NCBI GenBank assembly: GCA_903919185.1
Contig: CAIXHF010000087.1
Coordinates: forward strand, 18,270 to 82,269
Length of the DNA stretch: 64,000 bases
From: an uncultured Opitutia bacterium
GTDB taxonomy: Bacteria; Verrucomicrobiota; Verrucomicrobiia; Opitutales; UBA953
Reading direction: 5' to 3'
In this document: one piece after another, positions 4,187-63,342 of the stretch
Layout: the number at the start of each line of letters is the position of its first letter
How positions within the stretch are numbered: position 1 is the first letter of the stretch
The notes under the pieces: model-generated
The model's input: only the letters and a program-made list of their open reading frames with translations
Database searches by the model: none
Told to the model about the DNA's origin: nothing
Translations under genes and position numbers: made by a program

Positions 4187-4690
4187 TTAAGCCTCGTTCG
4201 AGCCCGGATCTTCCATGGGCTTGAACATATCGGGGATCGTCAAAGTAGGCAGGGCCATCTCGGGCATCTCATCTGGCATCACTTCCGCGACCACGGCGAG
4301 TGGCATGGAGCCGGCAGACGGGACGATCATACCCTCAGCCGAGGCTTCTTCCGCCAAGGCGTCCTCAACATAGAGCATCAGGCCACTGTATTCGGCCGGC
4401 AAGGTCACCCGCAACTGGACGAACACGAGGGCAAGGACGCAGGCATGGGCAAAGATTCGGCCCGCGCGCTGAGCGAAACGGGCGAGGCCCGCGACCGCCT
4501 GCGTCGCGTCTAAATCGGCCCGACCACGGAGGAAAGCCATCTGGGCCTTATGCAAACGAACACGGGCGTGAAAGCGCTGGCGGATTTCGGTGGAAGCCTG
4601 CAGGGCATTCCGCAGACGCAACACCTGCTCACGGGAGGCGGTACCGTCGAGGTAGCAAATAATCAGCGACTCCAGTTCGGCGTTACTCAT
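4187..4690 (-). CDS. Putative anti-sigma factor (single-pass membrane protein)
   Basis: 167-aa ORF. Its start overlaps the sigma gene stop by 4 nt. It has an N-terminal helical segment (LIICYLDGTASREQ), one hydrophobic helix (IFAHACVLALVFVQL) and an acidic/Met-rich tail. The call rests on position only; no family was recognised. Confidence 0.5.
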   Translation of the reverse strand: MSNAELESLIICYLDGTASREQVLRLRNALQASTEIRQRFHARVRLHKAQMAFLRGRADLDATQAVAGLARFAQRAGRIFAHACVLALVFVQLRVTLPAEYSGLMLYVEDALAEEASAEGMIVPSAGSMPLAVVAEVMPDEMPEMALPTLTIPDMFKPMEDPGSNEA

Positions 4691-5277
4691 TCGCGGAATT
4701 CATCCCCCATGAGTTGACGTAAGGCTTCGCGGGCACGGTTGATGCGGCTTTTCACGGTGCCAATTGAGAGGCCAAGCTCTTCGGCAATTTCCTCGTACGA
4801 CTGGTTGCGGATGTTGCGCATCGTTAGAATACGAGCGTGTTCTGGCTTCAATTGTTCCATGCACTCGGCCACTTTTGTAACGAATTCGTTATGCTCGGCT
4901 TCGTGGCCAGGGCCCTGGGAACCGTCCGAGAGGATGTCGTGCAGGGTGGCACCGGGATCCTCCCCGAGGTCCGCATCGAGGGACATGGACTGGTCACGCT
5001 TCCGCCGACGCCAGTACCAGTACCGATTACGAGCCAGATTCGTGCCAATTTGGTGAATCCAAGTTGAAAAAGTGGCCGTCCCGCGGAAGGAAGCGAGGAC
5101 CCGGTGGGCGCGAATAAAGGTGTCCTGCGTAATCTCCTCGGCATCCTGCCTATTACGAAGCAACGAGAAGACCTTGGCAAAGATTCGCCCCTGGTACCGA
5201 AGGACCAACTCGTTGTACGCCCCGAGGTCGCCATTGCGGGCGCGCTCAAGGGCGGACTGGTCGGCTTCAGTTTCCAT
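4687..5277 (-). CDS. ECF-type RNA polymerase sigma-70 factor
   Basis: 196-aa ORF. Region 2 reads EEITQDTFIRAHRVLASFRG...FSTWIHQIGTNLARN. The region 4 HTH reads QSYEEIAEELGLSIGTVKSRINRAREAL. Confidence 0.88.
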   Translation of the reverse strand: METEADQSALERARNGDLGAYNELVLRYQGRIFAKVFSLLRNRQDAEEITQDTFIRAHRVLASFRGTATFSTWIHQIGTNLARNRYWYWRRRKRDQSMSLDADLGEDPGATLHDILSDGSQGPGHEAEHNEFVTKVAECMEQLKPEHARILTMRNIRNQSYEEIAEELGLSIGTVKSRINRAREALRQLMGDEFRE

Positions 5278-5377
5278 CGTTTAGGGGTGGCTTTAGGGCG
5301 GGTATTTCCTGACTATGGTGCTGACATTAGGGGAGATATCAACTGCTGTCTTCAATCCCCAACCTCCTTTAGGAACC

Positions 5378-12904: not shown

Positions 12905-12981
12905 GGTAGCGTAGCTCAGTTGGTTAGAGCGAGGGACTCATAAGCCCTAGGTCGGCAGTTCAATTCTGCCCGTTACCACCA
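12905..12981 (+). tRNA. tRNA with CAT anticodon (elongator Met or lysidine-type Ile2, not initiator), CCA encoded
   Basis: Hand-folded cloverleaf. Acceptor GGTAGCG/CGTTACC (one G-U pair). D arm GCTC-AGTTGGTTA-GAGC. Anticodon arm AGGGA-CTCATAA-GCCCT, with CAT at 12939-12941 and a 31-39 A/G mismatch. T arm GGCAG-TTCAATT-CTGCC. Discriminator A, then CCA. The G1-C72 pair argues against an initiator. Confidence 0.85.
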
Positions 12982-16606: not shown

Positions 16607-17604
16607 ACTGCGTCGTCTTCGGCGCCGGTGCTTGGGGAACGGCCATGGCCATTCACCTCGACCGCCAAGGCCACACAGTGACCCTCGTGCCACGTCGCTT
16701 AGAGCAAGCGCTCAAGCTGACCGCGGAACGCGAAAATACCGACTACCTTAAAGGGCATAAACTCTCGGCATCCCTCCAAATTGGCCTCGAGGCGATTCCT
16801 GCGCTCATGGATGCAGACGTAGTTTTCTTAGCGTGCCCGTCCAAAGGTCTCTCCGAACTCGTCGCCCAAATCGGTCCGGCCCTATGTGCGTCCTCGGCCC
16901 GCATGGTCGTCTCGCTCTGCAAGGGTCTCGACCAAAACACCCTGCGCCGCCCCACCGAGGTGATGGCACTCAGAGTCGGTACCATTCCAGTTGCGACCTT
17001 AAGCGGACCCAGCAACGCCGACGAGGTCGCCCGTGGCATGCCCACCGCGATGGTCCTCGCCGCCCATCAGGACGACGAGACGCTGCGCGAAGTCCAAGCC
17101 GCCCTCAGTGGCCCGACGCTCCGGGCCTACACTTCCTCCGACCTCCCTGGCGTCGAGATCGGCGGCACCTTGAAGAACGTCTATGCGGTGGGCGCTGGCC
17201 TCTGCGATGGGCTAGGGCTCGGCTCTAATGCCAAGGCCGCCTTCCTCACCCGTGCCTTGCAAGAAATGATGCGCGTCGGCGTCGCCGTCGGCGGACGCCC
17301 TGAAACCTTCCTCGGCCTCGGTGGAGTCGGCGACCTCATGGCCACCGCGCACGGGGGCTGGAGCCGCAACCGGTCCTTTGGCGAACAGGTAGCCAAAGAC
17401 GCGGCAGGTGCCATCGCCGCCCTCGCCACTCGGCGCGACTCCGTTGAAGGCTACCGCGCGACTGACACCTTGACCCGTATGGCCAAAGCAAGCCAGCTCA
17501 ACGCCCCCATCCTCTTCTGCCTGCACCGTATCCTATTCGAAGGGCTCGACGCCCGGGCCGGCGTGACGGCCCTGATGACCCGCGACCTTAAGCCAGAGGC
17601 ATGA
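16603..17604 (+). CDS. gpsA: NAD(P)H-dependent glycerol-3-phosphate dehydrogenase GpsA
   Basis: 333-aa ORF. Rossmann motif VVFGAGAWGTAMA and GTLKNVYAVGAGLCDG. ATGA overlap with panB, and AAAGGAGG lies just upstream. Confidence 0.9.
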   Translation: MNCVVFGAGAWGTAMAIHLDRQGHTVTLVPRRLEQALKLTAERENTDYLKGHKLSASLQIGLEAIPALMDADVVFLACPSKGLSELVAQIGPALCASSARMVVSLCKGLDQNTLRRPTEVMALRVGTIPVATLSGPSNADEVARGMPTAMVLAAHQDDETLREVQAALSGPTLRAYTSSDLPGVEIGGTLKNVYAVGAGLCDGLGLGSNAKAAFLTRALQEMMRVGVAVGGRPETFLGLGGVGDLMATAHGGWSRNRSFGEQVAKDAAGAIAALATRRDSVEGYRATDTLTRMAKASQLNAPILFCLHRILFEGLDARAGVTALMTRDLKPEA

Positions 17605-18065
17605 GCGTAACGGGTACGGAGTCCAAACCTTCGCCCATTAGCGGGCTGGGGCTTTTCGCCACGCGCGCCTTCGCCACAGGCGAACGCATTGCCCCCTACA
17701 ACGGTGTCCTGTTAAATAGCCCTCCCGACGTCAGCACCCCGGGACAGCCCACCTATTTATTGGAAATAAGCCCGGGGCTCTGGCTCGACGGCTCAACACC
17801 CGCTAACCCTGCCCGCCACGCCAACCACTCCTGCTTGCCCAATTCTGAGCTGATACTCGATACTGCGGTCGGACACCCGTGGCTGGTCGCCTTCCGCCCG
17901 ATCGCCGCCCACGAAGAAATCACCTTTGACTATGGATTTTCGCTAGCAGAAAGCCTCTTTCACCCCTGTAAGTGCGGGGCGAAGGACTGTGTCGGAAAAA
18001 TCATTTCCTCACCGCTGCGCCCAGCCCTCCGCCGCCACCTGCGATTTTCCCGCCGAAGGGATTGA
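17601..18065 (+). CDS. SET-domain protein (putative protein lysine methyltransferase)
   Basis: 154-aa ORF with an ATGA overlap with gpsA. SET motifs: GLGLFATRAFATGERIAPYNG, NHSCLPNSE, EEITFDYGF. A post-SET Cys cluster reads CKCGAKDC. Confidence 0.85.
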   Translation: MSVTGTESKPSPISGLGLFATRAFATGERIAPYNGVLLNSPPDVSTPGQPTYLLEISPGLWLDGSTPANPARHANHSCLPNSELILDTAVGHPWLVAFRPIAAHEEITFDYGFSLAESLFHPCKCGAKDCVGKIISSPLRPALRRHLRFSRRRD

Positions 18066-18114
18066 CCCACGCCTTCTGGAAGGTCAGTTTTCGCAAGTCT
18101 ATCTTACACCATCC

Positions 18115-47934: not shown

Positions 47935-48984
<1,050 letters not shown>

Positions 48985-48985
48985 G

Positions 48986-49078
48986 AGGGGAAGACAAAGG
49001 GGATTGGGGATTGGGTTGTGCTGCGGCCTACAGGTGACTATCCCTCCGACTACCCCCTATCCCCTTGCCCCCTTACCC
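48986..49078. repeat. G-run array / C-run array inverted pair (GGGGATT-type units)
   Basis: G-runs lie at 48987-90, 48999-49002, 49006-09 and 49013-15 (..GGGGATTGGGGATTGGG). C-runs lie at 49053-57, 49061-64, 49068-72 and 49076-78 (CCCCCTATCCCCTTGCCCCCTTACCC). The C-run array ends 1 nt before the sulfatase ATG. Confidence 0.7.
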
Positions 49079-49079
49079 A

Positions 49080-50459
49080 ATGGCCGCTCGCTTCCTAATC
49101 CTGCTTTGTGCTGCGGTCGTTTCCGCCGCAGAGCCGCGCAAGCCGAACCTGATCTTCATCCTGAGCGACGACCTCGCGCAAGGAGACGTGGGCTGCTACG
49201 GGCAAAAACTCATTCAGACACCGAACCTCGACCGCATGGCCGCCGAGGGGACGAAGTTCACGCAAGGCTACTGCGGGACGTCGGTCTGCGCCCCAAGCCG
49301 CACGTCGTTGATGCTCGGCCAACACACCGGCCACAGCCCCATCCGCGCCAACCGCGAACTGAAGGCCGAGGGCCAGCTGCCAATCCCCGCAGAATCCATT
49401 ACGGTCGCAAAGGCCCTCAAGGGAAACGGCTACGCAACGGCCTGCATGGGTAAGTGGGGCATGGGGATGTTTGATACCACCGGCAGCCCCTTGAAGAACG
49501 GCTTCGACCACTTCCTTGGCTATAACTGCCAACGCCACGCGCACAGCTACTTCCCAACCTACCTCTACCGCGACGACCAACGTTTCGAACTGCCAGGCAA
49601 CGACGGTAAAGGCGTCGGCAAGACGTACGCACAGGATCTCATCCAGCAGGACGTCGAGTCCTGGATCCGTGCACAGAAGGACAAGCCGTTCTTCCTCTTT
49701 TACGCAATCACCCTGCCCCACGCCCGCCAGGAAATCGACGACCTAGGCATCTACAAAGACAAGCCCTGGACACCCACGCAGAAGGCCTACGCTGCACAGG
49801 TCACGCGACTCGACTCGGACGTGGGCCGCGTGCTAAAGCTGCTCAAGGAACTCGGGCTTGACGAGAACACCTTGGTGATGACCGCAGGCGACAATGGCTC
49901 ATCGTTCGCGCCGACGTCTGAGCTCGGTAAACTTTTCGACCAAGCATCCAATGGGCTCCGCGGCTACAAGCGCGGACTCTACGAAGGCGCCCTCCGACAA
50001 GCCGCCCTCGCCCGCTGGCCCGGCAAGGTCCCCGCGGGTCGCGTGAGCGACGAGCCATGGGCTTTCTGGGATTACCTACCAACGGCCTTGGAACTCTCTG
50101 GTACGAAGGCCCCGGACGGGCTGAAGACCGACGGCATCTCACTCGCTTCTTTCTTGCAAGGCGGCCCTGCCCCGAAGCGCGAATACTTCTACTGGGAACT
50201 CCACGAGGCACAGTCGCTCCAAGCCGCCCGCTGGGGCGATTGGAAAGCAGTGCGCAACGGCCCTGCCGCCAAGATGGAAATCTACGACCTTAAAGCCGAT
50301 GCGAACGAAAAGAACGACCTCGCGGACAAGCGCCCGGACCTCGTTGCGAAAGCCCTCGCGGTCTTTAAGGATGCGCACGTCGACCACCCCGAATGGCCAA
50401 TGCGGACCCTTAAACAGACGCAGGACGCGAACAAAGCACGCAAGACGGAGTCCAAGTAA
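49080..50459 (+). CDS. Arylsulfatase (formylglycine-dependent)
   Basis: ATG at 49080 (the track start at 49065 is TTG). It has a signal peptide. Motifs: [20 protein letters not shown] and the FGly motif [11 protein letters not shown]. Confidence 0.88.
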
Positions 50460-50463
50460 ACTT

Positions 50464-51414
50464 ATGAAATTCCGCCAGCTCGGTTGTTCTGACCTCCACC
50501 TGACTCCAGTCGGCCTCGGCACCTGGGCCATGGGCGGCGGCGATTGGAAATTCGGTTGGGGCCCACAGGATGACGCACTCTCCATTCGAACCATCCACGA
50601 AGCACTGGACCTCGGCATTAACTGGCTCGATACGGCCCCTGTCTACGGCCTCGGGCACTGCGAAGACGTCGTGGGGCGTGCGCTCAAGGAACTCAAGGGT
50701 CGCCGTCCGATCATTTCAACGAAATGCGAACGTTGCTGGGAAGCCGACGGCACCATCGTGCCGCGCCTCCAGCGTGCGAGCATCCACCGCGAGATCGAAG
50801 ACAGCCTTCGCCGTCTCGGCGTAGACGTTATCGACATGTACCAGATTCACTGGCCCCAGCCGGACGAGGATATCGAAGAAGGCTGGTCGGCCATCGCGGA
50901 ACTCGTGCAGGCCGGCAAGGTCCGCTGGGCGGGCGTGAGCAACTTCAGCGTCGCACAGCTCAAGCGCCTCCAACCCATTCATCCGGTGGCCTTCCTGCAG
51001 CCGCCCTACAGCATGATCAACCGCGGCATCGAAGCGGAGATCATCCCATACTGCGAGGCGAACGACATCGGCCTCATTCCCTACAGCCCGATGCAGAAGG
51101 GCCTGCTCAGTGGCAAGGTCACCCGCACTTGGGTCGATGCCCTGCCCGCCACCGACCACCGTCGTGGCGACCCTCAGTTCAACGAGCCTCTACTGTCCAA
51201 GAACATCGCGTTGAACGACGTCCTCCGTCAGGTCGCGGTGCGCCTTGGCACGTCGCCCGCCGAACTCGCCATCGCTTGGGTGCTACGTCAACCGCGCGTC
51301 ACCGCCGCCATCGTCGGCGCCCGCAAGCCTGGCCAGATTACCGAGACTATTGGCGGCGGCCGCCTCGAGATCCCGGCGGAAGTGTTGGGCGAGATCGCGA
51401 AGGTGTTGGGTTAA
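50464..51414 (+). CDS. Aldo/keto reductase
   Basis: ORF trimmed to the ATG at 50464 (MKFRQLG...). AKR blocks: LGTWAMGG, DTAPVYGLGHCEDVVGRAL, ISTKC, IDMYQIHWP. Confidence 0.88.
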   Translation: MKFRQLGCSDLHLTPVGLGTWAMGGGDWKFGWGPQDDALSIRTIHEALDLGINWLDTAPVYGLGHCEDVVGRALKELKGRRPIISTKCERCWEADGTIVPRLQRASIHREIEDSLRRLGVDVIDMYQIHWPQPDEDIEEGWSAIAELVQAGKVRWAGVSNFSVAQLKRLQPIHPVAFLQPPYSMINRGIEAEIIPYCEANDIGLIPYSPMQKGLLSGKVTRTWVDALPATDHRRGDPQFNEPLLSKNIALNDVLRQVAVRLGTSPAELAIAWVLRQPRVTAAIVGARKPGQITETIGGGRLEIPAEVLGEIAKVLG

Positions 51415-51420
51415 AATCCA

Positions 51421-51590
51421 GAGTACGGAGTACAGATTACAGAGTACAGAGTACGGAGGTCGAAGGGCGGACGCAGGGCCTAGATTGGCTCGGCCCCAAT
51501 TCCGTGGGTTATCCGGGGCGTATCACGTTCCGCCCAATAACTCTTACCCCTTACTCTGTTCTCTGTAATCTGTACTCTGCACTCTGTAAT
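51421..51590. repeat. Inverted tandem-heptamer arrays (GAGTACR)n ... (YGTACTC)n forming a long imperfect hairpin
   Basis: Left array: GAGTACG GAGTACA GATTACA GAGTACA GAGTACG GAGG (51421-51459). Right array: TTACTCT GTTCTCT GTAATCT GTACTCT GCACTCT GTAAT (51551-51590). Hand pairing of 51421-51458 with 51584-51547 gives 33 Watson-Crick pairs, 1 G-U and 4 mismatches. The loop is about 88 nt and contains an inner GGGCGG/CCGCCC stem. Confidence 0.85.
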
Positions 51591-51647
51591 GTGCCCGCAG
51601 CGCGGGCTTAATCTCCCCTTAACCCTACTTACCCTATAATCACCCAC

Positions 51648-53519
51648 ATGAGTCCTACCGTCCGCCTCTTGGCCCTGCTCACTGCTGCCTACGCCGCACC
51701 CTCGCTCCAGGCGCACATCCCACCGATCGACGCGAAGTATCGTGAAACTACGACTGCGACCCTCGTAGCACCGTCCGCCAAGTTCTACCTAAACTTCACG
51801 ACTCTCGCCGCTGGCACGACTAACGGCACGCCACCGGCCTTGGCCGCACCGTTCCAAGCCTTCGCCCCGAAGGTCGGTGTGCGCTGGGACGAGAAGTATC
51901 TCTACGTCGAAGCCAAGGGCCTACCCGATCACCCGCTCATGGCCGGCATCAAGTCCTGGCAGCAGCAAGTTCCCATCCCGCAAACTTACGCGGGTGACAA
52001 AGCCTGGCAGATTCCGCTCCACCCCGTACCCGCCAAAGAACCGATGTCCGCGAAGACGCACTTCATGCGCGGCGCCATCGCGCTCGCCGCGAACGGTATC
52101 CCCATCTTTAACGCGCTGAACAACCGTGGCGATGACGCTAAGAAGTTCGGTGAGCTCGACGACTTCGGTGGCCACTGCGGCAAGGGCGATGACTACCATT
52201 ACCATGATGCGCCCATCTTCCTCGAGAAGACCCTCGGCAAGGGCAAGGCCATCGCCGTAGCCCTCGATGGTTACGCCATCTATGGTTACAACGAGCCCGA
52301 CGGCTCGGCGCCCGGTAAGCTCGACGAGTTTGGCGGCCACGAGACCAAGGCCCTTGGCTACCACTACCACGCGCAGAAGATTTACCCGTACATCAATGGC
52401 GGTTTCCATGGCGAAGTCACCGAAGTCGGCGGCCAGGTCGACCCACAACCCTCCGCCAGCCACGTGCGCAAAGAAGGCTCGGCTTACTCACAGTCGCCCC
52501 TCCGCGGGGCGGTGATCAAGGACTTCACCACCTCGCCTGACGGCAAGACCTTCGAACTGCGCTACACGCTCAACGGCAAGGCCCTCAGCGTAAAGTACAT
52601 CGTCAACGAAGACGGTACGTGGACTTTCACCTACAGCCGTCCGGACGGCACCCCGGTCGTCGAGACCTATAAGCCCAATGAACGCGGCCCAGGCGGCGGC
52701 GGCGCCAAGGGTGAAAGTAAGGGCGGTAAAGGTGGCAAGGGTGGTAAGCGTCCTCCGAATGAACCTGAGGGCGCCAAGGGTGAGGCCGGCGACCTCGGCG
52801 AGCAGGCTCAACCTGGAAATCCCGAAGGTGACCGACCAAAGGGTGACCGCCCCAAAGGCGGCAAGGGTGGTAAAGGCGGCAAAGGCGATCCTTCCGGCCT
52901 CATTAAGCCCTCCCCCGCCGACGCCTTGAAGTTAAACGTCTATGCCGACAACTGGTTCATCCTCTTCATCAACGGCAAGCTCCGCGTCGTCGACCCCATC
53001 GAGTACATGCCGCACAATGTCGTCTCGGTCGATATCATGCCCGAGTACCCGATGACTATCGCCGTCATGGCCATGGACAACGCCGACCCCAAGACTGGAC
53101 TCGAATACGGCAACCACATTGGTGACGCCGGCTTAATCATTAAGTTCTCCGACGGCACCGTCACGAATGCGAAGTGGAAGGCCAAGAACTTTTTCAAAGG
53201 CCCGCTCAACCGCGACGTCACCAACCCCAAGGTTCAGCACGACCCCATTCCCGCCAACTGGTACGCCGTCGACTTCGACGATTCCAGCTGGGCCCAGGCC
53301 ACCGAGTTCACCGAGGAACGCGTGAGCCCCAAGGAATCCTTCACCAAGGCCAAGGAAAGCTTTGCGGGCGCCAAGTTCATCTGGTCCGAAGACCTCGACC
53401 TAGACAACACCGTCCTCTTCCGCACCAAGGTCGAAGCCCCCGCGGGCTATAAGCAGCGCTGGACCGCCAAGCCCGAAATCGACATGGCCGAGGTGACCAA
53501 GCAGTTATTGAATAAGTAA
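51648..53519 (+). CDS. YHYH-domain secreted protein with Gly/Lys-rich linker and C-terminal beta-sandwich domain
   Basis: 623-aa ORF with a signal peptide. YHYH motifs: GGHCGKGDDYHYHDAP and GGHETKALGYHYHAQ. A low-complexity G/K/P/E region spans 52686-52898. Confidence 0.8.
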   Translation: MSPTVRLLALLTAAYAAPSLQAHIPPIDAKYRETTTATLVAPSAKFYLNFTTLAAGTTNGTPPALAAPFQAFAPKVGVRWDEKYLYVEAKGLPDHPLMAGIKSWQQQVPIPQTYAGDKAWQIPLHPVPAKEPMSAKTHFMRGAIALAANGIPIFNALNNRGDDAKKFGELDDFGGHCGKGDDYHYHDAPIFLEKTLGKGKAIAVALDGYAIYGYNEPDGSAPGKLDEFGGHETKALGYHYHAQKIYPYINGGFHGEVTEVGGQVDPQPSASHVRKEGSAYSQSPLRGAVIKDFTTSPDGKTFELRYTLNGKALSVKYIVNEDGTWTFTYSRPDGTPVVETYKPNERGPGGGGAKGESKGGKGGKGGKRPPNEPEGAKGEAGDLGEQAQPGNPEGDRPKGDRPKGGKGGKGGKGDPSGLIKPSPADALKLNVYADNWFILFINGKLRVVDPIEYMPHNVVSVDIMPEYPMTIAVMAMDNADPKTGLEYGNHIGDAGLIIKFSDGTVTNAKWKAKNFFKGPLNRDVTNPKVQHDPIPANWYAVDFDDSSWAQATEFTEERVSPKESFTKAKESFAGAKFIWSEDLDLDNTVLFRTKVEAPAGYKQRWTAKPEIDMAEVTKQLLNK

Positions 53520-53728
53520 TCGAGGCTTCGGCGACCTCCCTAGGCTGGAGAAAGTCAGGGTAAGTTCCTTTATGGGGGAAAATGGCAGTCAAATCGTTCG
53601 CCTTGGGGGGAACATTGCCCTTGGCAGGGGGTCGAAAAAACCACACCTTGGCCCATCCCCGTCCTTTCCACCGCCCATCTGGGTCGGTGGTCTCTGGCTT
53701 CCGCTTCCCCTTCATCCAAAACACCCAC

Positions 53729-56700
53729 ATGCGTCCGTTGCTTACCCTCCTCCTTGCCATGCTCGGCTTCGCCGGCGTGCAGGCCCAAACCCTCGAGCTG
53801 AAGAAAGGCGATAACGTCGCCTTCGTCGGCGGCGGCCTCGCTGACCGTCAGCAGCACTACGGCCACCTCGAAGCGCTGATCCATAAGGCTAACGCCGACA
53901 AGGATCTCGTCGTGCGCAACCTCGGCTTCTCCGGCGACGAAGTAAACACCCGTCACCGCTCCGATGAAGTGCCCGCCCTTGAGCTCTTCCTCAACATGAA
54001 GCCTGGCGACCTCGCCACGAAGTCCGGCAACACCGCCATCACCTACCACTTCGGGACCGACTTCCACGCCAATGTGCTCCTCGCCTATTGGGGCTTCAAC
54101 GAAAGCTTCCGCGGTCCGGATGGACTCGTCGCCTTCAAGGCGAACGTCGACGAATGGGTCAAGAAGCAGCTCGCCGCCGATTACGGTAAAGGCAAGGTCC
54201 GCCTCGTCCTCCTCTCCCCGATCGCCCACGAGGACCTTAAGTCCGCGAACTTCGACCCGGCCATCGTCGCCCGCAATAACAAGAACCTCGCCGCCTACAC
54301 CGCCGCCCTCGGCGAAGTCGCCAAGGCTAACAGCGTCCAGTTCGTTGACCTCTTCACCCCTTCGCAGAAACTCTACGCGGCTGCCAAGTCCCCGCTGACG
54401 CTCAATGGTATCCACCTGAACGACGCTGGCGACGAAGCCCTCGCCGCCGTGCAGTTCCAGGCCCTCTTCGGTAAGGCTACCCCGTCCATCGACGCCGCCC
54501 TCCTCGCTGCCGTCAATGAGAAGTCCACTCAGTGGCACCACCGCTACCGCACGGTCGACCAATTCAACATCTATGGTCAGCGCTCCCGCATTAAGTACGA
54601 AGGTATCGACAACGCCACCGTCATCGGCCGTGAACTCGCCAACCGTGACATCAAGACCGCTAACCGCGACCAGGCCATCTGGGCTGCCGCCAACGGCAAG
54701 AACCTCGTCGTCAAGGATGACAACCTCCTGCCCGACATCGCCGTCCCGCCAAACCGCAAGGACCCAGTCCCCTACCTTTCCGGCGAAGACCAGATTAAGT
54801 TCCTGACCCTCCCTGAGGGCTGCAAGGTTGAGTTCATCGCCGACGAAACGACAATCCCTGAGCTCATCAACCCGGTACAGATGAACTTCGACACCAAGGG
54901 TCGCCTCTGGCTCGCCGTCTGGCCGAACTACCCGGAAACCTCCCCGAAGACTAAGAACTTCGACAAGCTCCTCGTCATCGACCTCGACCCGAAGAGCGGC
55001 AAGGTCGCCAAGTCGCACGTCTTCCTCGACGGCCTCAACTGCCCGACCGGCTTCCAGTTCTATAAGGACGGCGTCATCCTCATCCAGTCGCCAGACATGT
55101 GGTTCGCGCGCGACACCTCTGGCAAGATGGAGAAGGCTGACTGGAAGGAAAAGATCCTGACCGGCATGGACGCGGCGGACTCCCACCACGAGACGAACTC
55201 CATCTGCTATGAACCAGGTGGTGCGATGTACTTCTCCGACGGCGTGTTCCACCGCACCCAAGTCGAGACCTTCGACAAGGGAGCAATCCGGAACACCAAC
55301 GGCGGCATCTACCGCTTCGAACCGCAGAGCTACAAGTTCTCGCGCTATGTCCCGTACGGCTTCGCCAACCCGCACGGCCGCGTCTTCGACTACTGGGGCA
55401 ACGACATCATCACCGACGCCACCGGTAACGCCAACTACTTCGGCCCTGGCTTCTCTGGCCACCTCGACACTGGCTCCCACGGTGGCTACCACCAGATGTG
55501 GAGCCGCCCGTCGCGCCCCTGCCCGGGCACGGCCATCCTCAGCAGCCGTCACTTCCCTGAAGACTGGCAGGGCACATTCCTCAACACGAACGTGATCTCC
55601 TACCAAGGTATCTTCCGCGCGAAACTGACCGAAGAAGGTTCCGGCATCAAGGGTACGACCATCGAGCCAGGCTTGATCAAGACCGACAACACCCAGGCTG
55701 GTAACTTCCGCCCCTCCGGCGTCGCCGTCGCCCCCGATGGTTCGCTCTACGTCATGGACTGGTCCCAGATGCTTATCGGCCACCTCCAGCACCACCTGCG
55801 TGACCCGAATCGTGACCACCAGCACGGCCGCCTCTACCGCATCACCTTCCCCGGCCGCCCCCTGCTGACGCCTAAGAAGATCTTCGGCGAATCCATCGCC
55901 AACCTCCTCGAACTCCTCAAGGAACACGAAGATAACGTCCGCCAACGCGCCAAGGTCGAGTTGCACAAGTACGACAGCGCTGAAGTCATCGCTGCTACCC
56001 AGAAGTGGGTGAAGCAGTTCGACCCCTCCAAGAAGGAAGACGCCCACCACATCCTCGAAGCCCTCTGGGTCCACCAGTGGCACAACGCGGTGAACCTCGA
56101 CCTCATCAAGGCCCTCCTGAAGTCACCCGAGCATAATGCCCGCGCCCAGGCTGTGCGCGTCGTCTGCTACCAGCGCGACCGTATCCCTGATGCTATCGGG
56201 ATTGTTGAAGCCGCCATCAAGGATGAACACCCACGCGTCCGCCTCGAAGCCGTCCGCGCCCTCAGCTTCTTCAATGGTGCCGACACGAAGCGGGCCATCG
56301 CTGCCGCCCTCGTCGTCAAGGATGAGAAGGACCAGACTATCGCCTACTGCTTCCGTGAAACGATGAAGCAGTTATCTTCCCTGCCCGAAGGCAAGGAATT
56401 CAACATGGCTACGATTAAGAAGCCTATCGAAACGGTCTACGGACCGACGGACAAGAAGATCTCCAAGGCCGACAAGAAGCTCTACGACCTCGGCAAGGAA
56501 GTGTACTTCCGCGAAGCACTCTGCGTCACCTGCCACCAGGCCGACGGTAAGGGCATCGATAGCTTCCCCGACAAGTCCAAGCCAACCTTCGGCAGCTACC
56601 CTTCCCTCGCTCGTATGACTGGCTACCCGACCAATCCTTGGCTCGAAGGCGAGCCCGACCGCTCCATCAAGCTCGTCCTGAGCGGTATGTACGGCAAGAT

Positions 56701-56947
56701 GACCCTCCATGGTAAGCAGTACGGCGACATCACCGCCGGCCAGGCCGCCATGACCCCCCTCGGCCAGATGCTGAAGGACGAAGAAGTCGCCGGCGTGCTC
56801 ACTTATGTCCGCCAGTCGTGGAATAATAACCTACCGCCAGTCTCGGCCGCCCAAGTCAAGAAGGTCCGCGAAGCGACCAAGGCCCGTACGGCGATGTACA
56901 CCCCAGAGGAAATCCTCAAGGAACACCCTCTTCCGGCGGGCAAGTAA
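53729..56947 (+). CDS. PVC-type heme-binding CxxCH protein with N-terminal SGNH/GDSL-like domain
   Basis: ORF trimmed to the ATG at 53729 (MRPLLTLLLAMLGFAGVQA). GDSL-like blocks: NVAFVGGGLADRQ and LNGIHLNDAG. Propeller block: FDTKGRLWLAVWPNYPE. HEAT repeats are present. Heme motif: CVTCHQADGKG. Confidence 0.8.
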   Translation: MRPLLTLLLAMLGFAGVQAQTLELKKGDNVAFVGGGLADRQQHYGHLEALIHKANADKDLVVRNLGFSGDEVNTRHRSDEVPALELFLNMKPGDLATKSGNTAITYHFGTDFHANVLLAYWGFNESFRGPDGLVAFKANVDEWVKKQLAADYGKGKVRLVLLSPIAHEDLKSANFDPAIVARNNKNLAAYTAALGEVAKANSVQFVDLFTPSQKLYAAAKSPLTLNGIHLNDAGDEALAAVQFQALFGKATPSIDAALLAAVNEKSTQWHHRYRTVDQFNIYGQRSRIKYEGIDNATVIGRELANRDIKTANRDQAIWAAANGKNLVVKDDNLLPDIAVPPNRKDPVPYLSGEDQIKFLTLPEGCKVEFIADETTIPELINPVQMNFDTKGRLWLAVWPNYPETSPKTKNFDKLLVIDLDPKSGKVAKSHVFLDGLNCPTGFQFYKDGVILIQSPDMWFARDTSGKMEKADWKEKILTGMDAADSHHETNSICYEPGGAMYFSDGVFHRTQVETFDKGAIRNTNGGIYRFEPQSYKFSRYVPYGFANPHGRVFDYWGNDIITDATGNANYFGPGFSGHLDTGSHGGYHQMWSRPSRPCPGTAILSSRHFPEDWQGTFLNTNVISYQGIFRAKLTEEGSGIKGTTIEPGLIKTDNTQAGNFRPSGVAVAPDGSLYVMDWSQMLIGHLQHHLRDPNRDHQHGRLYRITFPGRPLLTPKKIFGESIANLLELLKEHEDNVRQRAKVELHKYDSAEVIAATQKWVKQFDPSKKEDAHHILEALWVHQWHNAVNLDLIKALLKSPEHNARAQAVRVVCYQRDRIPDAIGIVEAAIKDEHPRVRLEAVRALSFFNGADTKRAIAAALVVKDEKDQTIAYCFRETMKQLSSLPEGKEFNMATIKKPIETVYGPTDKKISKADKKLYDLGKEVYFREALCVTCHQADGKGIDSFPDKSKPTFGSYPSLARMTGYPTNPWLEGEPDRSIKLVLSGMYGKMTLHGKQYGDITAGQAAMTPLGQMLKDEEVAGVLTYVRQSWNNNLPPVSAAQVKKVREATKARTAMYTPEEILKEHPLPAGK

Positions 56948-56967
56948 GTCCTACGGACTTCCCGACC

Positions 56968-57000
56968 AAGGGCGTGCTTCGGCACGCCCTTTTTGTTTTG
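56968..57000 (+). terminator. Rho-independent terminator
   Basis: Perfect 10-bp stem AAGGGCGTGC (56968-77) / GCACGCCCTT (56982-91) with a TTCG tetraloop, followed by TTTTGTTTTG. It lies 21 nt after the stop codon. Confidence 0.9.
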
Positions 57001-57058
57001 TGAATAATATGACAGGGCGACCGCTTGAAAGACCAGTCGGACTAGCCACAGTATCCCC

Positions 57059-57517
57059 ATGACGACCAAGTACCCCCTTTGGAAAGCGATCAACGCCCAA
57101 CTAAAGGTGCTCGGCACGACGACGAAGTTGCGGGCCCTCGACGAGTTCCGCGCCAAGACGAAGTTGAAGGACGACTGGTGTACACTGCACGCCTCCTACC
57201 AACCGCGCGAAGGCCGCATCGCCGGACATCTCCGCTTCGAACTCTTGGCCGAAGGCCCTGAAGCGATGACGGTAATCGCAAACTTTCTCAGCGACGAAAA
57301 TCGCTTGCTGAAAAAGGTGAAACAAAAACTCGTCTTCGAACACGTGCTCGACCCAGAACTCCCCCCGGAGTGCAGCGAGGCGACACTCAAGATCGAAGCG
57401 CAAATCGTGTCGTGGCACGGGACAGATCTCGTCGACCGGCTGACGCCTTGGGCCGCCGAGGCCATCAGCGCGCTCCTCTGGATTCACGACGAAATCCGTC
57501 TGCCGAAGAAAAGGTAA
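57059..57517 (+). CDS. Hypothetical protein (orphan)
   Basis: 152-aa ORF with an ATG start. Its composition is ordinary, not shadow-like, and no motif was recognised. Confidence 0.55.
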   Translation: MTTKYPLWKAINAQLKVLGTTTKLRALDEFRAKTKLKDDWCTLHASYQPREGRIAGHLRFELLAEGPEAMTVIANFLSDENRLLKKVKQKLVFEHVLDPELPPECSEATLKIEAQIVSWHGTDLVDRLTPWAAEAISALLWIHDEIRLPKKR

Positions 57518-57535
57518 ACGCTAAAGGAGATTTCT

Positions 57536-57651
57536 GAGTACAGGTTACAGAGGGCAGTTGCCTCTCTCTCATTCGCAATCTGTACTCCGTAATCTGCACT
57601 CTGTAATCTATCCCCTACCCCCCATCCCCTATCCCCCATCCCCTATCCCCC
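57536..57651. repeat. Composite short-unit arrays: GAGTACA-type, inverted TGTACTC-type, then (ATCCCCY)n running up to the esterase start codon
   Basis: GAGTACA GGTTACA GAGGGCA spans 57536-57556. TGTACTC CGTAATC TGCACTC TGTAATC spans 57581-57608. TATCCCC TACCCCCC ATCCCCT ATCCCCC ATCCCCT ATCCCCC spans 57609-57651. The ATG is at 57652. Confidence 0.85.
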
Positions 57652-58404
57652 ATGCGCCTCCTCACCCTGCTCGCCGCCTGCGCGGCCGTCGTTCCTTCCT
57701 TCGCCCAGACGAAATCTGAAAAGGCCGCTGCGCCTGCCTTCGTCGCCCCGGCGACTAAGCTACCGCCCACGGCTAAGAAGTTCACAACCGCCGACGGCAA
57801 GGCCGCGCTCGATTACTTAGTCTACCTACCAGCCGACTATGATAAGGATAAGTCGAAGCAGTGGACGCTGGTGGTCTTTCTGCACGGCTCGGGCGAACGC
57901 GGCTCGGACGTCCAAGTCGTCCGCAAGACCGGCCTCACGCAGACGCTCGAACAACGCGGTGCCGTTCCTTACGTAATGATCGCCCCGCAATGCCCAGCCA
58001 ACTCTAGCTGGAACGTCGGCACGCTCGATAAGCTCCTCGACCAAGTTCTCACCGACTACCGCGTCGACAAGAAACGCGTCGTCCTGACCGGACTGAGCAT
58101 GGGCGGTTTCGGCACCTGGAACTGGAGCGTCGAGCACCCCGAACGCTTCGCTGGCCTCGTCCCCATCTGCGGCGGTGGCAAGACGGACAAGGCAGCGGCG
58201 CTCAAGGGCATGCCCATCTGGGCCTTCCACGGCGACGCTGACCCCGCGGTCAAGTTCGCCACCGGCCAAGCCATGGTCGATGCCGTCAAGTCCGCAGGGG
58301 CAGACATCAAGTTCACCGTTTACCCAGGCGTCGGTCACAACTCTTGGGGTAAGGCCTACGCTGAACCCGAGCTCGAAGCCTGGATCCTTGCGCGGAAGAA
58401 GTGA
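57652..58404 (+). CDS. Secreted alpha/beta-hydrolase esterase (phospholipase/carboxylesterase-like)
   Basis: 250-aa ORF with a signal peptide. Motifs: VVFLHGSGERG, nucleophile elbow GLSMGGFG, FHGDADPAV, GVGHNSW. Confidence 0.8.
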   Translation: MRLLTLLAACAAVVPSFAQTKSEKAAAPAFVAPATKLPPTAKKFTTADGKAALDYLVYLPADYDKDKSKQWTLVVFLHGSGERGSDVQVVRKTGLTQTLEQRGAVPYVMIAPQCPANSSWNVGTLDKLLDQVLTDYRVDKKRVVLTGLSMGGFGTWNWSVEHPERFAGLVPICGGGKTDKAAALKGMPIWAFHGDADPAVKFATGQAMVDAVKSAGADIKFTVYPGVGHNSWGKAYAEPELEAWILARKK

Positions 58405-58413
58405 AGAGGCCGT

Positions 58414-58657
58414 GGGGATGGGGGATTGGCGATGGACTGAAAAGGGGGACCGGGGACCGGAAATGGAGTAGGGGCGCGACTGCGTCGCGTCCGGACATAT
58501 GCCGCAGCACACTTTCTAATGCATCAGGTAGGGGCAGGCTTTGCCTTGCACTCCACCGCAGGAGGGCGCGGCGAAGCCACGCCCCTACCCAATCTCTGTA
58601 CTCCGCACTCTGTACTCCCTTTAACCCCCATTCCCCCATCCCCTATCCCCAGTCCCC
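58414..58657. repeat. Composite intergenic element: (GGGGATK)n, nested GTAGGGGCG-bounded hairpin module, TGTACTC array and (CCCCWWT)n
   Basis: GGGGATG GGGGATT GGCGATG spans 58414-58434. GTAGGGGCG (58468-76) is the reverse complement of CGCCCCTAC (58580-88). Inner hairpins: GCGCGAC-TGC-GTCGCGT and GCAGGC-TTT-GCCTTGC. TGTACTC CGCACTC TGTACTC spans 58597-58617. CCCCCATTCCCCCATCCCCTATCCCCAGTCCCC spans 58625-58657. Confidence 0.8.
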
Positions 58658-58726
58658 TCAAAACACCCTTCCCTTTTACCCCCTTAGAGGGTTAAAACGA
58701 CCCCTTCCCATTCCCTTTACCGTCCC

Positions 58727-61417
<2,691 letters not shown>

Positions 61418-61430
61418 GAGGGCTAGAGCT

Positions 61431-61468
61431 AGGGACAGGGCTAGGTAACACTGTCCCTCTTTATTGCT
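61431..61468 (+). terminator. Terminator-like hairpin after alaS
   Basis: Perfect 8-bp stem AGGGACAG (61431-38) / CTGTCCCT (61451-58) with a 12-nt loop, followed by CTTTATTG. Confidence 0.5.
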
Positions 61469-61500
61469 GCCCACCAACCATCCCGCTCCGGGGGGCTGGC

Positions 61501-61557
61501 GGAGGCTTAATATCCATTCTGCCTCCTCCCCACCCCTGTCCCTGTCCCTCCCCCTAT
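61501..61557. repeat. Hairpin GGAGGC/GCCTCC plus CCTGTC-unit C-rich array (inverse of the AGGGACAGGG tract at 61431-61440)
   Basis: GGAGGC (61501-06) pairs with GCCTCC (61521-26). CCCCACCCCTGTCCCTGTCCCTCCCCC spans 61529-61555. Confidence 0.6.
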
Positions 61558-61626
61558 CATTTTTATCAATACCCTCCGCGTGCACCTCTCATTGCCTTTA
61601 GCCCTATGGTCCTCTAAACCTCTCCA

Positions 61627-62361
61627 ATGCGACTCTTCGCCTTCCTCGCTCTCCTCGCCCTCACCCCGCTGTCCGGCTTCGCCCAGAGCGACAGCGTTCC
61701 GCGGGTCGGCAAGAACCAAGGATCCGGGTCCAGGCACTTCGTCCGCATGCAGGTCGACGCCAACGCTCTCGCCCTCCCGCTCTCGATCTCAATCAAGGGC
61801 AAGGACCGTGCGGCGGTCGACGCCCGCCTTGATGTGATCCGTAAGGAACTTGAGAAACGTTTCGCCGACCAGCCGGGCTGGGAACTCCGCGAGATCTCCT
61901 CGGAGTTTGCGCGCGCCGAAGCCAAGTCCTATGTCTCGCGTCCCGCTAGCGGCAGCAAACTCTTCGGCGACGATGAGGCCGACCAGGGCGACGTCACCTA
62001 CGTCACTAATGCCCGCTGGGAACTCCACACCGATGCCGACAAAGGCCTCAAGGGCCTGGAAATCCTCCGCTCCAAGGCCGCCGACCTCGTGAAGGCGAAG
62101 AGCGACGACGAGAAGCAGGTCATCGGCAATCCGGAGTATGTCCTGACGAATCCGCACGATTACCGCAACGAGCTACTCGACCAAATCAAGGCCGACTTCG
62201 AAGAAGCGATGAAGCATCTGCCCGAAGGCCAGTGGACGCTTGAAGTCGCCACGCTGGCCCAGTCCGTCGACGTCGTCGCCCTCGGCGGCAAGCGCTTCGA
62301 GGTCAGCCTCGCCTATCGCATGGCATTCGTCACGCCGGAGCCCGAAAAGGCTAAGAAATAA
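61627..62361 (+). CDS. Secreted hypothetical protein
   Basis: 244-aa ORF with a signal peptide (MRLFAFLALLALTPLSGFA). It is charged and mixed alpha/beta. No family was recognised. Confidence 0.6.
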   Translation: MRLFAFLALLALTPLSGFAQSDSVPRVGKNQGSGSRHFVRMQVDANALALPLSISIKGKDRAAVDARLDVIRKELEKRFADQPGWELREISSEFARAEAKSYVSRPASGSKLFGDDEADQGDVTYVTNARWELHTDADKGLKGLEILRSKAADLVKAKSDDEKQVIGNPEYVLTNPHDYRNELLDQIKADFEEAMKHLPEGQWTLEVATLAQSVDVVALGGKRFEVSLAYRMAFVTPEPEKAKK

Positions 62362-62469
62362 CCCCTACCAGCCTTACCCTCGAGCCTGCACTGATTTTAC
62401 GTCACTACTTGGTCCCATGTCCATCCGCCGTCTAGCCCTCGTCCTTCCCCCTAGGCGCCGAACCCTCCC

Positions 62470-63342
62470 ATGAAGGCTTTTCCTTTCCTGACCAATTATG
62501 TCAACCAGACCTTCGAAAGTGAGAAGGGCCGGCTGGACTACATTTTTCTACGGCCGATTCTACAGGTATCCTATTTCTTCCTGAAGGCCGTCCTGTTCCC
62601 GCTCAAGTTCCTTTTCCACCGGCGCGCCTACGGCTTCGAGGCGCGTTGCATCGACGGCTTACTCGCCTTCGGGATGAAGTACTTTGCGACCGTTGATGCG
62701 GTTGAAATGATGGTCCGCCACGTGCAAATCGAACCGCTGCTCTACCGCCATTTGCTCGGAGAGAAATCTCACCTCGAGGGCGAGCGGCGTAAATTCAATG
62801 GTATCGATGGCGACTACAACATGGATAACCTCAGCGAAATGATCCGGAATAACCTGACCATCGGCCACGACGAGCTCTCTTACGAACTGGTTGACCGCTT
62901 CGATAAGGATGCCTTTCTCGCGAACCTCGACCGTGTTCGCCGCCGCCTGCCTGAGGACCACATGCTTTTCAGCAAGCGCGCGATCGAAGCCACCCGCAAA
63001 CACTCCCTCCAGTGGATCGGCGTTACCAATGTGGTCATCTTAATTGTTTTGGTCATCACGGTCTTCGCCGATCTCCGGACCGCCGTAAAGGCGCTGAATT
63101 CCTTCGACTCTGACTCGGTGCTACTGTGGGCCATGAAGCATCTCTATGCCCATGATCGCGTGGTCTTGACCGACCTTGATTTCTATCTTCAGGCCGAAAG
63201 CAACCGCGGGCACTTCAGCAGCAGCGTGTTCCTCTCCAGCCCAGGCCTCTATCTTCATAGCCATATCGCCTTCGACGAATACGCCTACCAGACCCTGCGC
63301 GAGCGGCCGCCGATCATTTCCGGCGAAACATTTACAGCATGA
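62470..63342 (+). CDS. Hypothetical membrane-associated protein
   Basis: 290-aa ORF with one clear TM helix (WIGVTNVVILIVLVITVFADL). Its stop overlaps the start of the next gene (ATGA). No family was recognised. Confidence 0.6.
   Translation: MKAFPFLTNYVNQTFESEKGRLDYIFLRPILQVSYFFLKAVLFPLKFLFHRRAYGFEARCIDGLLAFGMKYFATVDAVEMMVRHVQIEPLLYRHLLGEKSHLEGERRKFNGIDGDYNMDNLSEMIRNNLTIGHDELSYELVDRFDKDAFLANLDRVRRRLPEDHMLFSKRAIEATRKHSLQWIGVTNVVILIVLVITVFADLRTAVKALNSFDSDSVLLWAMKHLYAHDRVVLTDLDFYLQAESNRGHFSSSVFLSSPGLYLHSHIAFDEYAYQTLRERPPIISGETFTA

Follow-up and report, generated by a model that had tools for sequence, protein, structure and literature searches.

Heptamer arrays beside an esterase gene of a lake Opitutae bacterium probably belong to a clade-wide class of intergenic tandem repeats

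The repeat unit of the cyanobacterium Nostoc is the classical cyanobacterial STRR1 heptamer CCCCA(A/G)T. Rehm et al. (2015, PLoS One, PMC4692102) described G-rich heptameric simple sequence repeats with the unit GGGAATC in Xanthomonas and GGGGA(C/T)T in Nostoc PCC 7120. These repeats are dispersed, intergenic and mostly located between co-directional open reading frames (ORFs), with 70-75 convergent inverted pairs in Xanthomonas. On the coding strand they are G-rich near the upstream stop codon and C-rich near the next start codon, and they are depleted between divergent genes. At a given spacer, close relatives differ in the number and sequence of the repeats; no link to gene function or mobile elements was seen and a function was not found (PMC4692102). 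Circular dichroism (CD) and melting experiments demonstrated a G-quadruplex (G4) for (GGGGATT)4 and an i-motif for (AATCCCC)4, and in Xanthomonas citri transcript starts and stops were more frequent at G4-capable repeats than at control repeats (PMC4692102). Here we analyze tandem heptamer arrays around an esterase gene in a stretch of 64,000 nucleotides from an uncultured Opitutia bacterium (assembly GCA_903919185.1, contig CAIXHF010000087.1, positions 18,270 to 82,269 of the forward strand), hereafter called the window. The arrays represent the known repeat class in a new phylum, Verrucomicrobiota. Our preferred reading, to which we assign a probability of roughly 75%, is that they belong to a class of short intergenic tandem repeats shared across the clade of freshwater Opitutae, with units of 6-8 nt that are mostly heptamers, and not an esterase-specific device. 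In our literature search we did not find such repeats reported for Verrucomicrobia or Opitutae.

A preliminary description of the locus had the esterase gene (57652-58404, plus strand) bracketed by inverted C-run and G-run arrays, and its reading of the letters holds in nearly every detail. The upstream array (ATCCCCY)x6 at 57609-57651 reads TATCCCC TACCCCCC ATCCCC TATCCCCC ATCCCC TATCCCCC, and its last base immediately precedes the ATG at 57652. This ATG is the true start of the gene, as the N-terminal signal peptide MR(L/F)LTLLAAC...FAQ is kept in relatives and similarity ends at the ATG. On the minus strand the array corresponds to (RGGGGAT)6, with G-runs of 5, 4, 5, 4, 6 and 4 separated by loops of 2-3 nt. 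The stop codon TGA occupies 58402-58404, and the units GGGGATG GGGGATT GGCGATG begin at 58414, the tenth base past the stop. When 58414-58429 is reverse-complemented, 15 of its 16 bases agree with 57628-57643. GAGTACA-type units are present at 57536-57551, with complementary units at 57577-57609 and 58594-58617. A second C-run array does lie downstream, at 58625-58657; only the printed coordinate, 58625-57657, was a typing error. These arrays are far beyond chance expectation: with periods of 6-8, no fewer than 3 copies and scores of 34 or more, Tandem Repeats Finder (TRF) detected 7 of them in the window, whereas 50 windows simulated with a third-order Markov model contained 0.26 arrays on average and 1 at most. 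The top simulated score was 39, compared with 65 (period 7) and 81 (period 14) for the array at the esterase ATG.

The arrays follow a layout common to five consecutive co-directional spacers, numbered here 1 (48985-49079), 2 (51415-51647), 3 (57518-57651), 4 (58405-58726) and 5 (61418-61626). Behind the stop codon stands an arm of G-rich GGGGATK and/or CAGAGTA units, followed by a core, a complementary arm of TACTCTG and/or ATCCCCY units, and the next start codon or a conserved leader. Each co-directional spacer is a palindromic unit of its own, and its variable core often holds REP-like palindromes headed by GTAG. Spacer 2 is the cleanest example: its left arm (CAGAGTA)x5.7 at 51419-51458 and its right arm (TACTCTG)x5.3 at 51552-51593 are 89% complementary over 38 nt. 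In spacer 1 the G-arm AAAGGGGATTGGGGATTGGG (48996-49015, with GGGGATT x2 at 48999) is followed by a C-run array at 49051-49078, which stops 1 nt short of a sulfatase ATG at 49080, so that the esterase is not alone in having an array at its start codon. Spacer 3, upstream of the esterase, begins with a degenerate single G-unit AAAGGAGATT (57524-57533) that shares 9 of 10 bases with AAAGGGGATT of spacer 1 and represents a vestigial outer left arm. Its GAGTACA-type left arm (GAGTACAGGTTACAGA, 57536-57551) forms a hairpin with the TGTACTC-type right arm at 57577-57609, and the C-run array then leads up to the ATG. In spacer 4 the G-run array at 58414-58435 is the left outer arm, and a second G-run array, GGGGGACC GGGGACC, follows at 58444-58460. 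On the other side of the core, a TGTACTC-type array (58594-58617) precedes the C-run array at 58625-58657, the right outer arm, which pairs with 58414-58435 at 82% over the 22-nt arms. The left arm of spacer 5, GAGGGCTAGAGCTAGGGACAGGGCTAGG (61418-61446), lies directly 3' of the alaS stop, and its right arm at 61523-61557 contains (CCCTGT)n; all of these arms are given for the plus strand. The local RNA folds of spacers 2, 4 and 3 are well below those of shuffled sequences (z = -7.2, -4.8 and -4.1, respectively). The two clear divergent spacers of the window, a small sample, contain no arrays. Miniature inverted-repeat transposable elements were considered for the spacers and rejected: the five cores are mutually dissimilar and only the arms match, and target-site duplications were not evident at the boundaries of the arrays tested.

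The C-run array at the esterase ATG is the right arm of the upstream spacer, and the G-run array after the stop is the left arm of the downstream spacer. That the two bracket the esterase is incidental, since the downstream G-array can pair equally well within spacer 4: 58414-58429 and 58628-58643, about 200 nt apart, are complementary at 15 of 16 positions and are paired in the minimum-energy fold of that spacer. This bears directly on the earlier proposal that base pairing between the 5' C-array and the 3' G-array circularizes or occludes the esterase mRNA. Such pairing is thermodynamically possible. It could draw on the 15/16 complementarity of the two arms, ViennaRNA partition functions for 57609-57651 against 58414-58460 give 20-32 expected base pairs, and more if the transcript ends before 58600, and the C-array is otherwise unpaired in the local fold. 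However, besides the competing partner within spacer 4, a translated ORF of 750 nt separates the arms, and conservation of the pairing is not seen: only the C-array of the two is present in five of eight close relatives, the G-arrays fall within a segment (58397-58467) that is missing from a population variant, and the upstream spacer of relative L019 has a (GGGGTTG)7 arm of its own. We regard mRNA pairing as scarcely plausible.

The same class of arrays was found throughout the related lineages. Of the 25 related Opitutae lineages tabulated, 23 had arrays with units of 6-8 nt according to TRF, with densities of 0.7-7 per 10 kb; the arrays were nearly absent from nine non-relatives. The units differ by lineage and include GGGGATK, CAGAGTA, TTTGCAC, GGGGTTG, GTTAGGG/GTTGGCG, GCGGTTA, CGATACT, GGGCTG and TGGGCT. 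Across the Opitutae loci, 87 arrays fell into 55.5 kb of non-coding and 45 into 301 kb of coding sequence, which makes them about 10-fold denser in non-coding DNA. In co-directional spacers all 17 G-rich arrays were closer to the upstream stop (median 10 nt) and 33 of 36 C-rich arrays were closer to the downstream start (median 69.5 nt). The G-arm came first in each of the 13 high-scoring inverted array pairs and in all 8 close pairs among the metagenome matches listed from a pattern scan for ATCCCCYATCCCCYATCCCC, for which the ORF caller was too noisy to permit a position census. The position rule also holds in a spacer between minus-strand genes (locus L120) and between convergent genes (L101). 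Dispersal over the genome is suggested by the five spacers within 13 kb of the window, by the further clade loci L101 and L120, and by contig breaks and depth spikes at the arrays. About half of the metagenome matches listed are AT-rich contigs (16-30% GC), mostly from rumen-type samples, that end in CCCCAAT/ATCCCC-like repeats (L055, L056, L060, L062-L066 and about 35 further loci); they resemble ciliate macronuclear telomeres and are unrelated to the arrays.

The likeness to the repeats described by Rehm et al. extends from the units to their placement. Both are heptamers with tracts of G4 potential, including the identical unit GGGGATT/AATCCCC, and the Opitutae arrays display the intergenic bias, the stop/start position rule, the convergent inverted pairs and the variation of length and sequence among relatives. 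The published CD data cover GGGGATT/AATCCCC, whereas the Opitutae variant with ATA/AT loops (oligonucleotide form d(GGGGGATAGGGGAT)3) was scored here with G4Hunter and regular expressions. The Opitutae repeats differ in that several unit families occur per genome and even per spacer, among them the G4-incapable CAGAGTA, TTTGCAC, GCGGTTA and CGATACT, in that they are nested with REP-like palindromes, in the excess of C-rich over G-rich arms, and in the existence of an informative array-free sister lineage. Poorly understood G4-prone intergenic heptamers, known from Xanthomonas and heterocystous cyanobacteria, are thereby extended to a third, unrelated phylum. Abundant lake Opitutae moreover provide a denser comparison series, with many lineages that share the layout but use different units and one array-free sister with ordinary terminators.

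The esterase locus itself illustrates this variation. As close relatives we count those with at least 90% identity and additionally L039, which has an esterase of only 55% identity but spacers of about 90% identity. All eight close relatives for which the downstream spacer could be read keep a C-run array at the ATG, with varying copy number and unit, but five of them have no G-array after the stop, and only L017 and L019 keep the G-array as in the window. The variant without 58397-58467 occurs in one lake population. In the orthologous esterase-alaS spacer both arms switch their unit jointly between lineages, the pairs being GGGGATK/ATCCCCY, GTTRGSG/CSCYAAC and GGGCTK/MAGCCC. In relatives at 86-70% identity (L008, L010, L021-L023) the upstream spacer measures 47-50 nt and contains no array. 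The lineage L012/L025 (67-68% identity, GC 55%) has no tandem arrays in 33 kb and instead carries canonical hairpin-plus-T terminators in both spacers (L012 5869-6003 and 6766-6950), where other lineages have arrays. Relatives with the esterase at this locus but without the arrays, which the preliminary description had named as evidence against its own proposals, therefore do exist (L008, L010, L021-L023 and L012/L025). A TTTGCAC(C) family of heptamers and octamers was observed in the downstream spacer of L014, L016-L018, L020 and L039, as direct arrays split by a small GGCCAA(A/C)GGCC hairpin; this module occurs in two different spacers of L039 (including 26-41) and as an inverted pair in L030 (17720-17809). 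In L023, two direct copies of a module of about 100-130 nt with a palindromic core and C-rich arrays (17208-17310 and 17959-18090) surround a minus-strand ORF of 232 aa and could stem from a duplication or be the footprint left by insertion of a small gene.

The esterase is a secreted alpha/beta-hydrolase of 250 aa with a signal peptide and matches to Abhydrolase_2, DLH, Peptidase_S9 and Esterase; the motifs GLSMGG, HGDAD and GVGH are seen by direct reading. The inverted repeats on either side and the multi-copy nature of the repeats had led to the suggestion that gene and flanks constitute a cassette-like mobile unit. Yet the order of a DUF7133 gene, a 152-aa gene, the esterase, alaS and a 244-aa gene is kept at 90, 86 and 72% esterase identity, and at 67% identity the same order is found without the 152-aa gene. 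The esterase DNA is identical in 7 assemblies at the same site, the gene lists of the neighborhood show no integrase, transposase or other recombinase, and the flanking arrays are parts of separate spacer units. All relatives examined down to 67% identity share the gene order, so that the cassette is effectively refuted, and the esterase is a resident, ordinary, vertically inherited gene between two spacer units. Together, these findings dispose of the attractive but mistaken idea of a riboregulator dedicated to the esterase or of a cassette.

Comparison of strains of the same species with identical esterase DNA shows how such arrays change. Strain L001 is one GGGGATT unit (7 nt) shorter in spacer 1 and one CCCTGT unit (6 nt) shorter in spacer 5, and in one assembly the spacer upstream of the esterase is 14 nt shorter, as judged from gene coordinates only. 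The units may thus expand and contract by slipped-strand mispairing, with strains that differ by exactly one or two units. More drastically, in L001 (3800-4000, compared with 51380-51600 of the window) the CAGAGTA/TACTCTG unit of spacer 2 is swapped for an unrelated GTAGGG-type palindrome pair, GGGTAGGG...CCCTACCC, and the divergence reaches into the last ~35 nt of the upstream aldo-keto-reductase gene, which suggests the boundary of a recombination tract. Arms or whole units could likewise be swapped by recombination or by copying between spacers, which would change the unit sequence and leave the layout intact.

Within the core of spacer 4 lies a second, separate layer of repeats, the REP-like palindromes. 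A 26-mer, GTAGGGGCGCGACTGCGTCGCGTCCG (58468-58493, plus strand), is dispersed in both orientations at non-orthologous sites of many Opitutae loci, and genomes with an esterase of only about 62% identity contain it in 100% identical form. The second element, GGTAGGGGCAGG...CGCCCCTACC (58527-58589, plus strand), is a palindrome of 63 nt. Both inner elements are headed by GTAG, often occur as inverted pairs, and were found in L017, L019, L020, L028, L030, L031, L036, L039, L101 and L120; REP-like elements of other loci are present in metatranscriptome contigs. The REP, BIME and REPIN elements of proteobacteria are short, dispersed, extragenic GTAG-headed palindromes that are mobilized by RAYT transposases and often form inverted pairs between co-directional genes. 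By sequence alone, the two inner elements resemble them in being GTAG-headed, palindromic, dispersed, over-represented and arranged as inverted pairs, whereas the heptamer arrays are tandem and not single palindromes. Short-read contigs of four runs all end at 58588, Logan contigs break at the 3' end of the 63-nt element, and two species representatives start within the C-run array. The k-mer depth rises 1.7-3x over the arrays, and over 58541-58607 it is 36-200x that of the flanks in four lake metagenomes. At contig joints the end of the 63-nt element is connected to TGTACTC and C-run arrays elsewhere; therefore, the modules exist in multiple copies and recombine elsewhere in an unchanged order. 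The repeats also break short-read assemblies of these metagenome-assembled genomes (MAGs).

Given its G4 potential, the C-run array could act as a transcriptional or translational switch for the esterase, with a G4 formed by its template strand or an i-motif formed by its non-template strand; control of transcription by such structures was among the proposals of the preliminary description. Competence of the sequence is supported. The highest G4Hunter peak of the whole 64 kb is at 57598-57667 (2.88), where six runs of 4-6 G with loops of 2-3 nt lie on the minus (template) strand, and the four strongest peaks are all C-run arrays (57598-57667, 58610-58674, 49037-49086 and 61511-61560). The array at 57609-57651 consists of 65% C and 0% G and is single-stranded in the local RNA fold. 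G4 and i-motif folding has been demonstrated for oligonucleotides built from the same units, and the excess of transcript starts and stops at G4-capable repeats of X. citri points in the same direction (PMC4692102). On the other hand, the G4-incapable GAGTACA/TGTACTC arrays have the same layout and positions, the array is absent in esterase orthologues at 86-70% identity, and the same arrays precede unrelated genes. In addition, i-motifs of RNA are unstable (PMC4692102). Competence for these structures is thus supported and control of the esterase is not, and we consider a switch of this kind decidedly unlikely.

As to a more general role, we infer the following. A hairpin-forming, G4-prone G-arm that begins no more than about 10 nt past a stop codon could serve as a 3' end structure or as a barrier between transcription units, while the tract adjoining the next start or promoter would be G-free, C-rich and unstructured. 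This C-rich tract may be tolerated because the genes lack Shine-Dalgarno sequences and have C-rich leaders anyway. In the upstream array it is the template strand that is G-rich, and a G4 forming on it could hinder a polymerase that reads through. The G-first layout would then be what gene expression tolerates or favors, and any effect would be a generic boundary effect rather than control of the esterase. To an adaptive boundary effect of the arrays we give somewhat less than an even chance. In a stricter form, selection in array-bearing Opitutae would maintain the inverted G-first arrays as boundaries of flexible sequence between transcription units, which would insulate by a hairpin or G4, form 3' ends and replace canonical terminators. 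This form builds on the joint switching of units by both arms and on the hairpin-plus-U terminators that the array-free lineage L012/L025 has at exactly those positions; nonetheless, we judge it unlikely. The contrast between lineages makes an old question testable, namely whether the repeats act and whether they do so via the hairpin, the G4 or the C-rich tract.

A classical intrinsic terminator, in turn, was rejected for the arrays themselves, as a terminator scan gave none in array-bearing spacers. The only canonical plus-strand terminator within a spacer between 48.8 and 62 kb is located at 56968-57001, 3' of the DUF7133 gene, and has a 10-bp GC stem and a T-run; it begins the unit of the 152-aa gene (57059-57517, plus strand) and the esterase. 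Since it is the only one, these two genes probably form one co-transcribed unit, and the array upstream of the esterase would then lie in an operon-internal spacer where read-through must be allowed. Rho-dependent termination has also been weighed. Rho prefers C-rich, G-poor, unstructured RNA, and the G-free C-rich arrays could be Rho loading (rut) sites that end untranslated read-through transcripts, with the paired G-arm sequestering them. Composition agrees with this idea, 57577-57651 having 49% C, 5% G and 33 YC dimers in 75 nt and 58594-58726 having 47% C and 8% G. However, genes whose expression is required have the arrays directly at their ATG, and we find a role as rut sites very unlikely.

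The arrays might also have no effect on expression and be neutral or selfish filler of unconstrained intergenic DNA, with a layout that merely reflects what starts and stops tolerate. That they extend to the very ATG where the spacer is probably operon-internal, and otherwise to the edge of a conserved promoter/leader block, agrees well with filler. So do their fast turnover, including the complete replacement of one spacer within a single species, the unbalanced or missing arms, the lack of a G:U bias, the array-free spacers of 47-50 nt that suffice in relatives, and the fact that no function was found in Xanthomonas or Nostoc (PMC4692102). Against it stand the persistence of the layout in the same spacer through three different unit families, the strict G-first orientation (13/13, and 8/8 among the matches listed) and the canonical terminators at the same two positions in the array-free sister lineage, which hint that the position has a job. 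On balance, mere filler appears possible but doubtful to us.

Several observations weigh against our preferred reading of a clade-wide class with a potential boundary effect. The census covers about 360 kb of mostly syntenic and mostly plus-strand loci, was obtained with a crude ORF caller based on G+C content at third codon positions (GC3), and counts orthologous spacers repeatedly. The G-first layout is strand-symmetric, with the G-arm leading on either strand, so that by itself it is no proof of a coupling to transcription; the symmetry means that for genes of any orientation a G-rich tract follows the stops and a C-rich tract precedes the starts. The number of C-rich arrays is twice that of G-rich arrays (36 versus 17), and together with the five of eight close relatives that have a C-arm but no G-arm this indicates that pairing is not strictly maintained. 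Mismatches between the arms, compared as G:U versus A:C, show no sense-strand G:U bias (9 versus 11). Given this and the 2:1 excess of C-arms, selection for the hairpin as such is not demonstrated. The fold of spacer 1 is no better than those of shuffled sequences (z = -0.8). Finally, the matches of lake metatranscriptome runs (X25-X28) to 56900-61700 were limited to conserved pieces of alaS and to REP-like elements that originate elsewhere. A cross-lineage RNAduplex matrix of left against right arms showed a weak advantage of cognate pairs (-53.8 versus -48.7 kcal/mol), in a comparison in which any G-arm pairs with any C-arm and some arms were missed by the fixed windows.

Tandem heptamers at start codons are also known from other bacteria. 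TAACTGA repeats occur at start codons in Beggiatoaceae (MacGregor 2015, PMC4679880), and (GACYAAT)8 overlaps the start of recO in Nostoc (bioRxiv 10.1101/2022.06.06.494920). As in Opitutae, these tandem heptamers stand at or over the starts of genes without canonical ribosome-binding sites and with diverse, often housekeeping functions. They are direct repeats of a single unit for which the binding of post-transcriptional regulators has been proposed, whereas the Opitutae arrays are inverted pairs of many units. In the 40 nt 5' of 11 called starts of the window (47935-63339), only 1 weak Shine-Dalgarno-like match was detected, which suggests that translation initiation in this organism may be independent of such sequences. 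The leaders of these genes are C-rich and G-poor, and the array at the esterase is the extreme of this local norm. Phase-variable contingency loci resemble the arrays in the tandem repeat beside a start codon and in the polymorphism of unit number between strains. They differ from the Opitutae arrays, which adjoin metabolic and housekeeping genes (alaS, sulfatase), occupy both gene ends and form inverted pairs. A phase-variation model was ruled out by these gene functions and by the arrays at both gene ends, and Rehm et al. were likewise negative on phase variation (PMC4692102).

Exact protein matches of the locus come from lake-water assemblies, including the NCBI MAG GCA_026398015.1; the nearest species representatives (95% amino-acid identity) are labelled uncultured Opitutae and the remoter ones Verrucomicrobiota or Opitutae. 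The 152-aa gene, to which no function was assigned, precedes the esterase in relatives with identities as low as 70%. In spacer 4 the repeats end at the edge of a block at 58660-58726 (plus strand) that comprises CCCTTCCCTTTT, a small covarying hairpin and TTAAAAC ... TTTACCGTCCC. The block is conserved 5' of alaS in all Opitutae relatives (70 nt upstream of alaS, L008-L036), where the hairpin stem covaries (CCCCCTTAGAGGG / CCCCCTCCGGGGGG / GCCCCGACCGGGGC) and is followed by TTAAAA(C/A)GACCCCTTCCC...TTTACCGTCC-ATG. It is probably the promoter or leader of alaS and possibly an operator or attenuator. The block matched no Rfam family, and a search of 57450-58780 against Rfam 15 (E <= 1) returned no family except for one spurious miRNA match; a promoter scan gave no sigma-70-like matches in the array spacers. 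The sole Rfam match at gathering threshold in the window is a tRNA gene at 12905-12978. In the 90% relative L014, a 270-aa Exo_endo_phos gene (4518-5330) stands between the DUF7133 gene and the 152-aa gene, where the window has a spacer of 111 nt with the terminator. The MAGs L020 and L031, which belong to this Opitutae clade by synteny and repeats, carry the public label Akkermansia muciniphila and are probably mislabelled.

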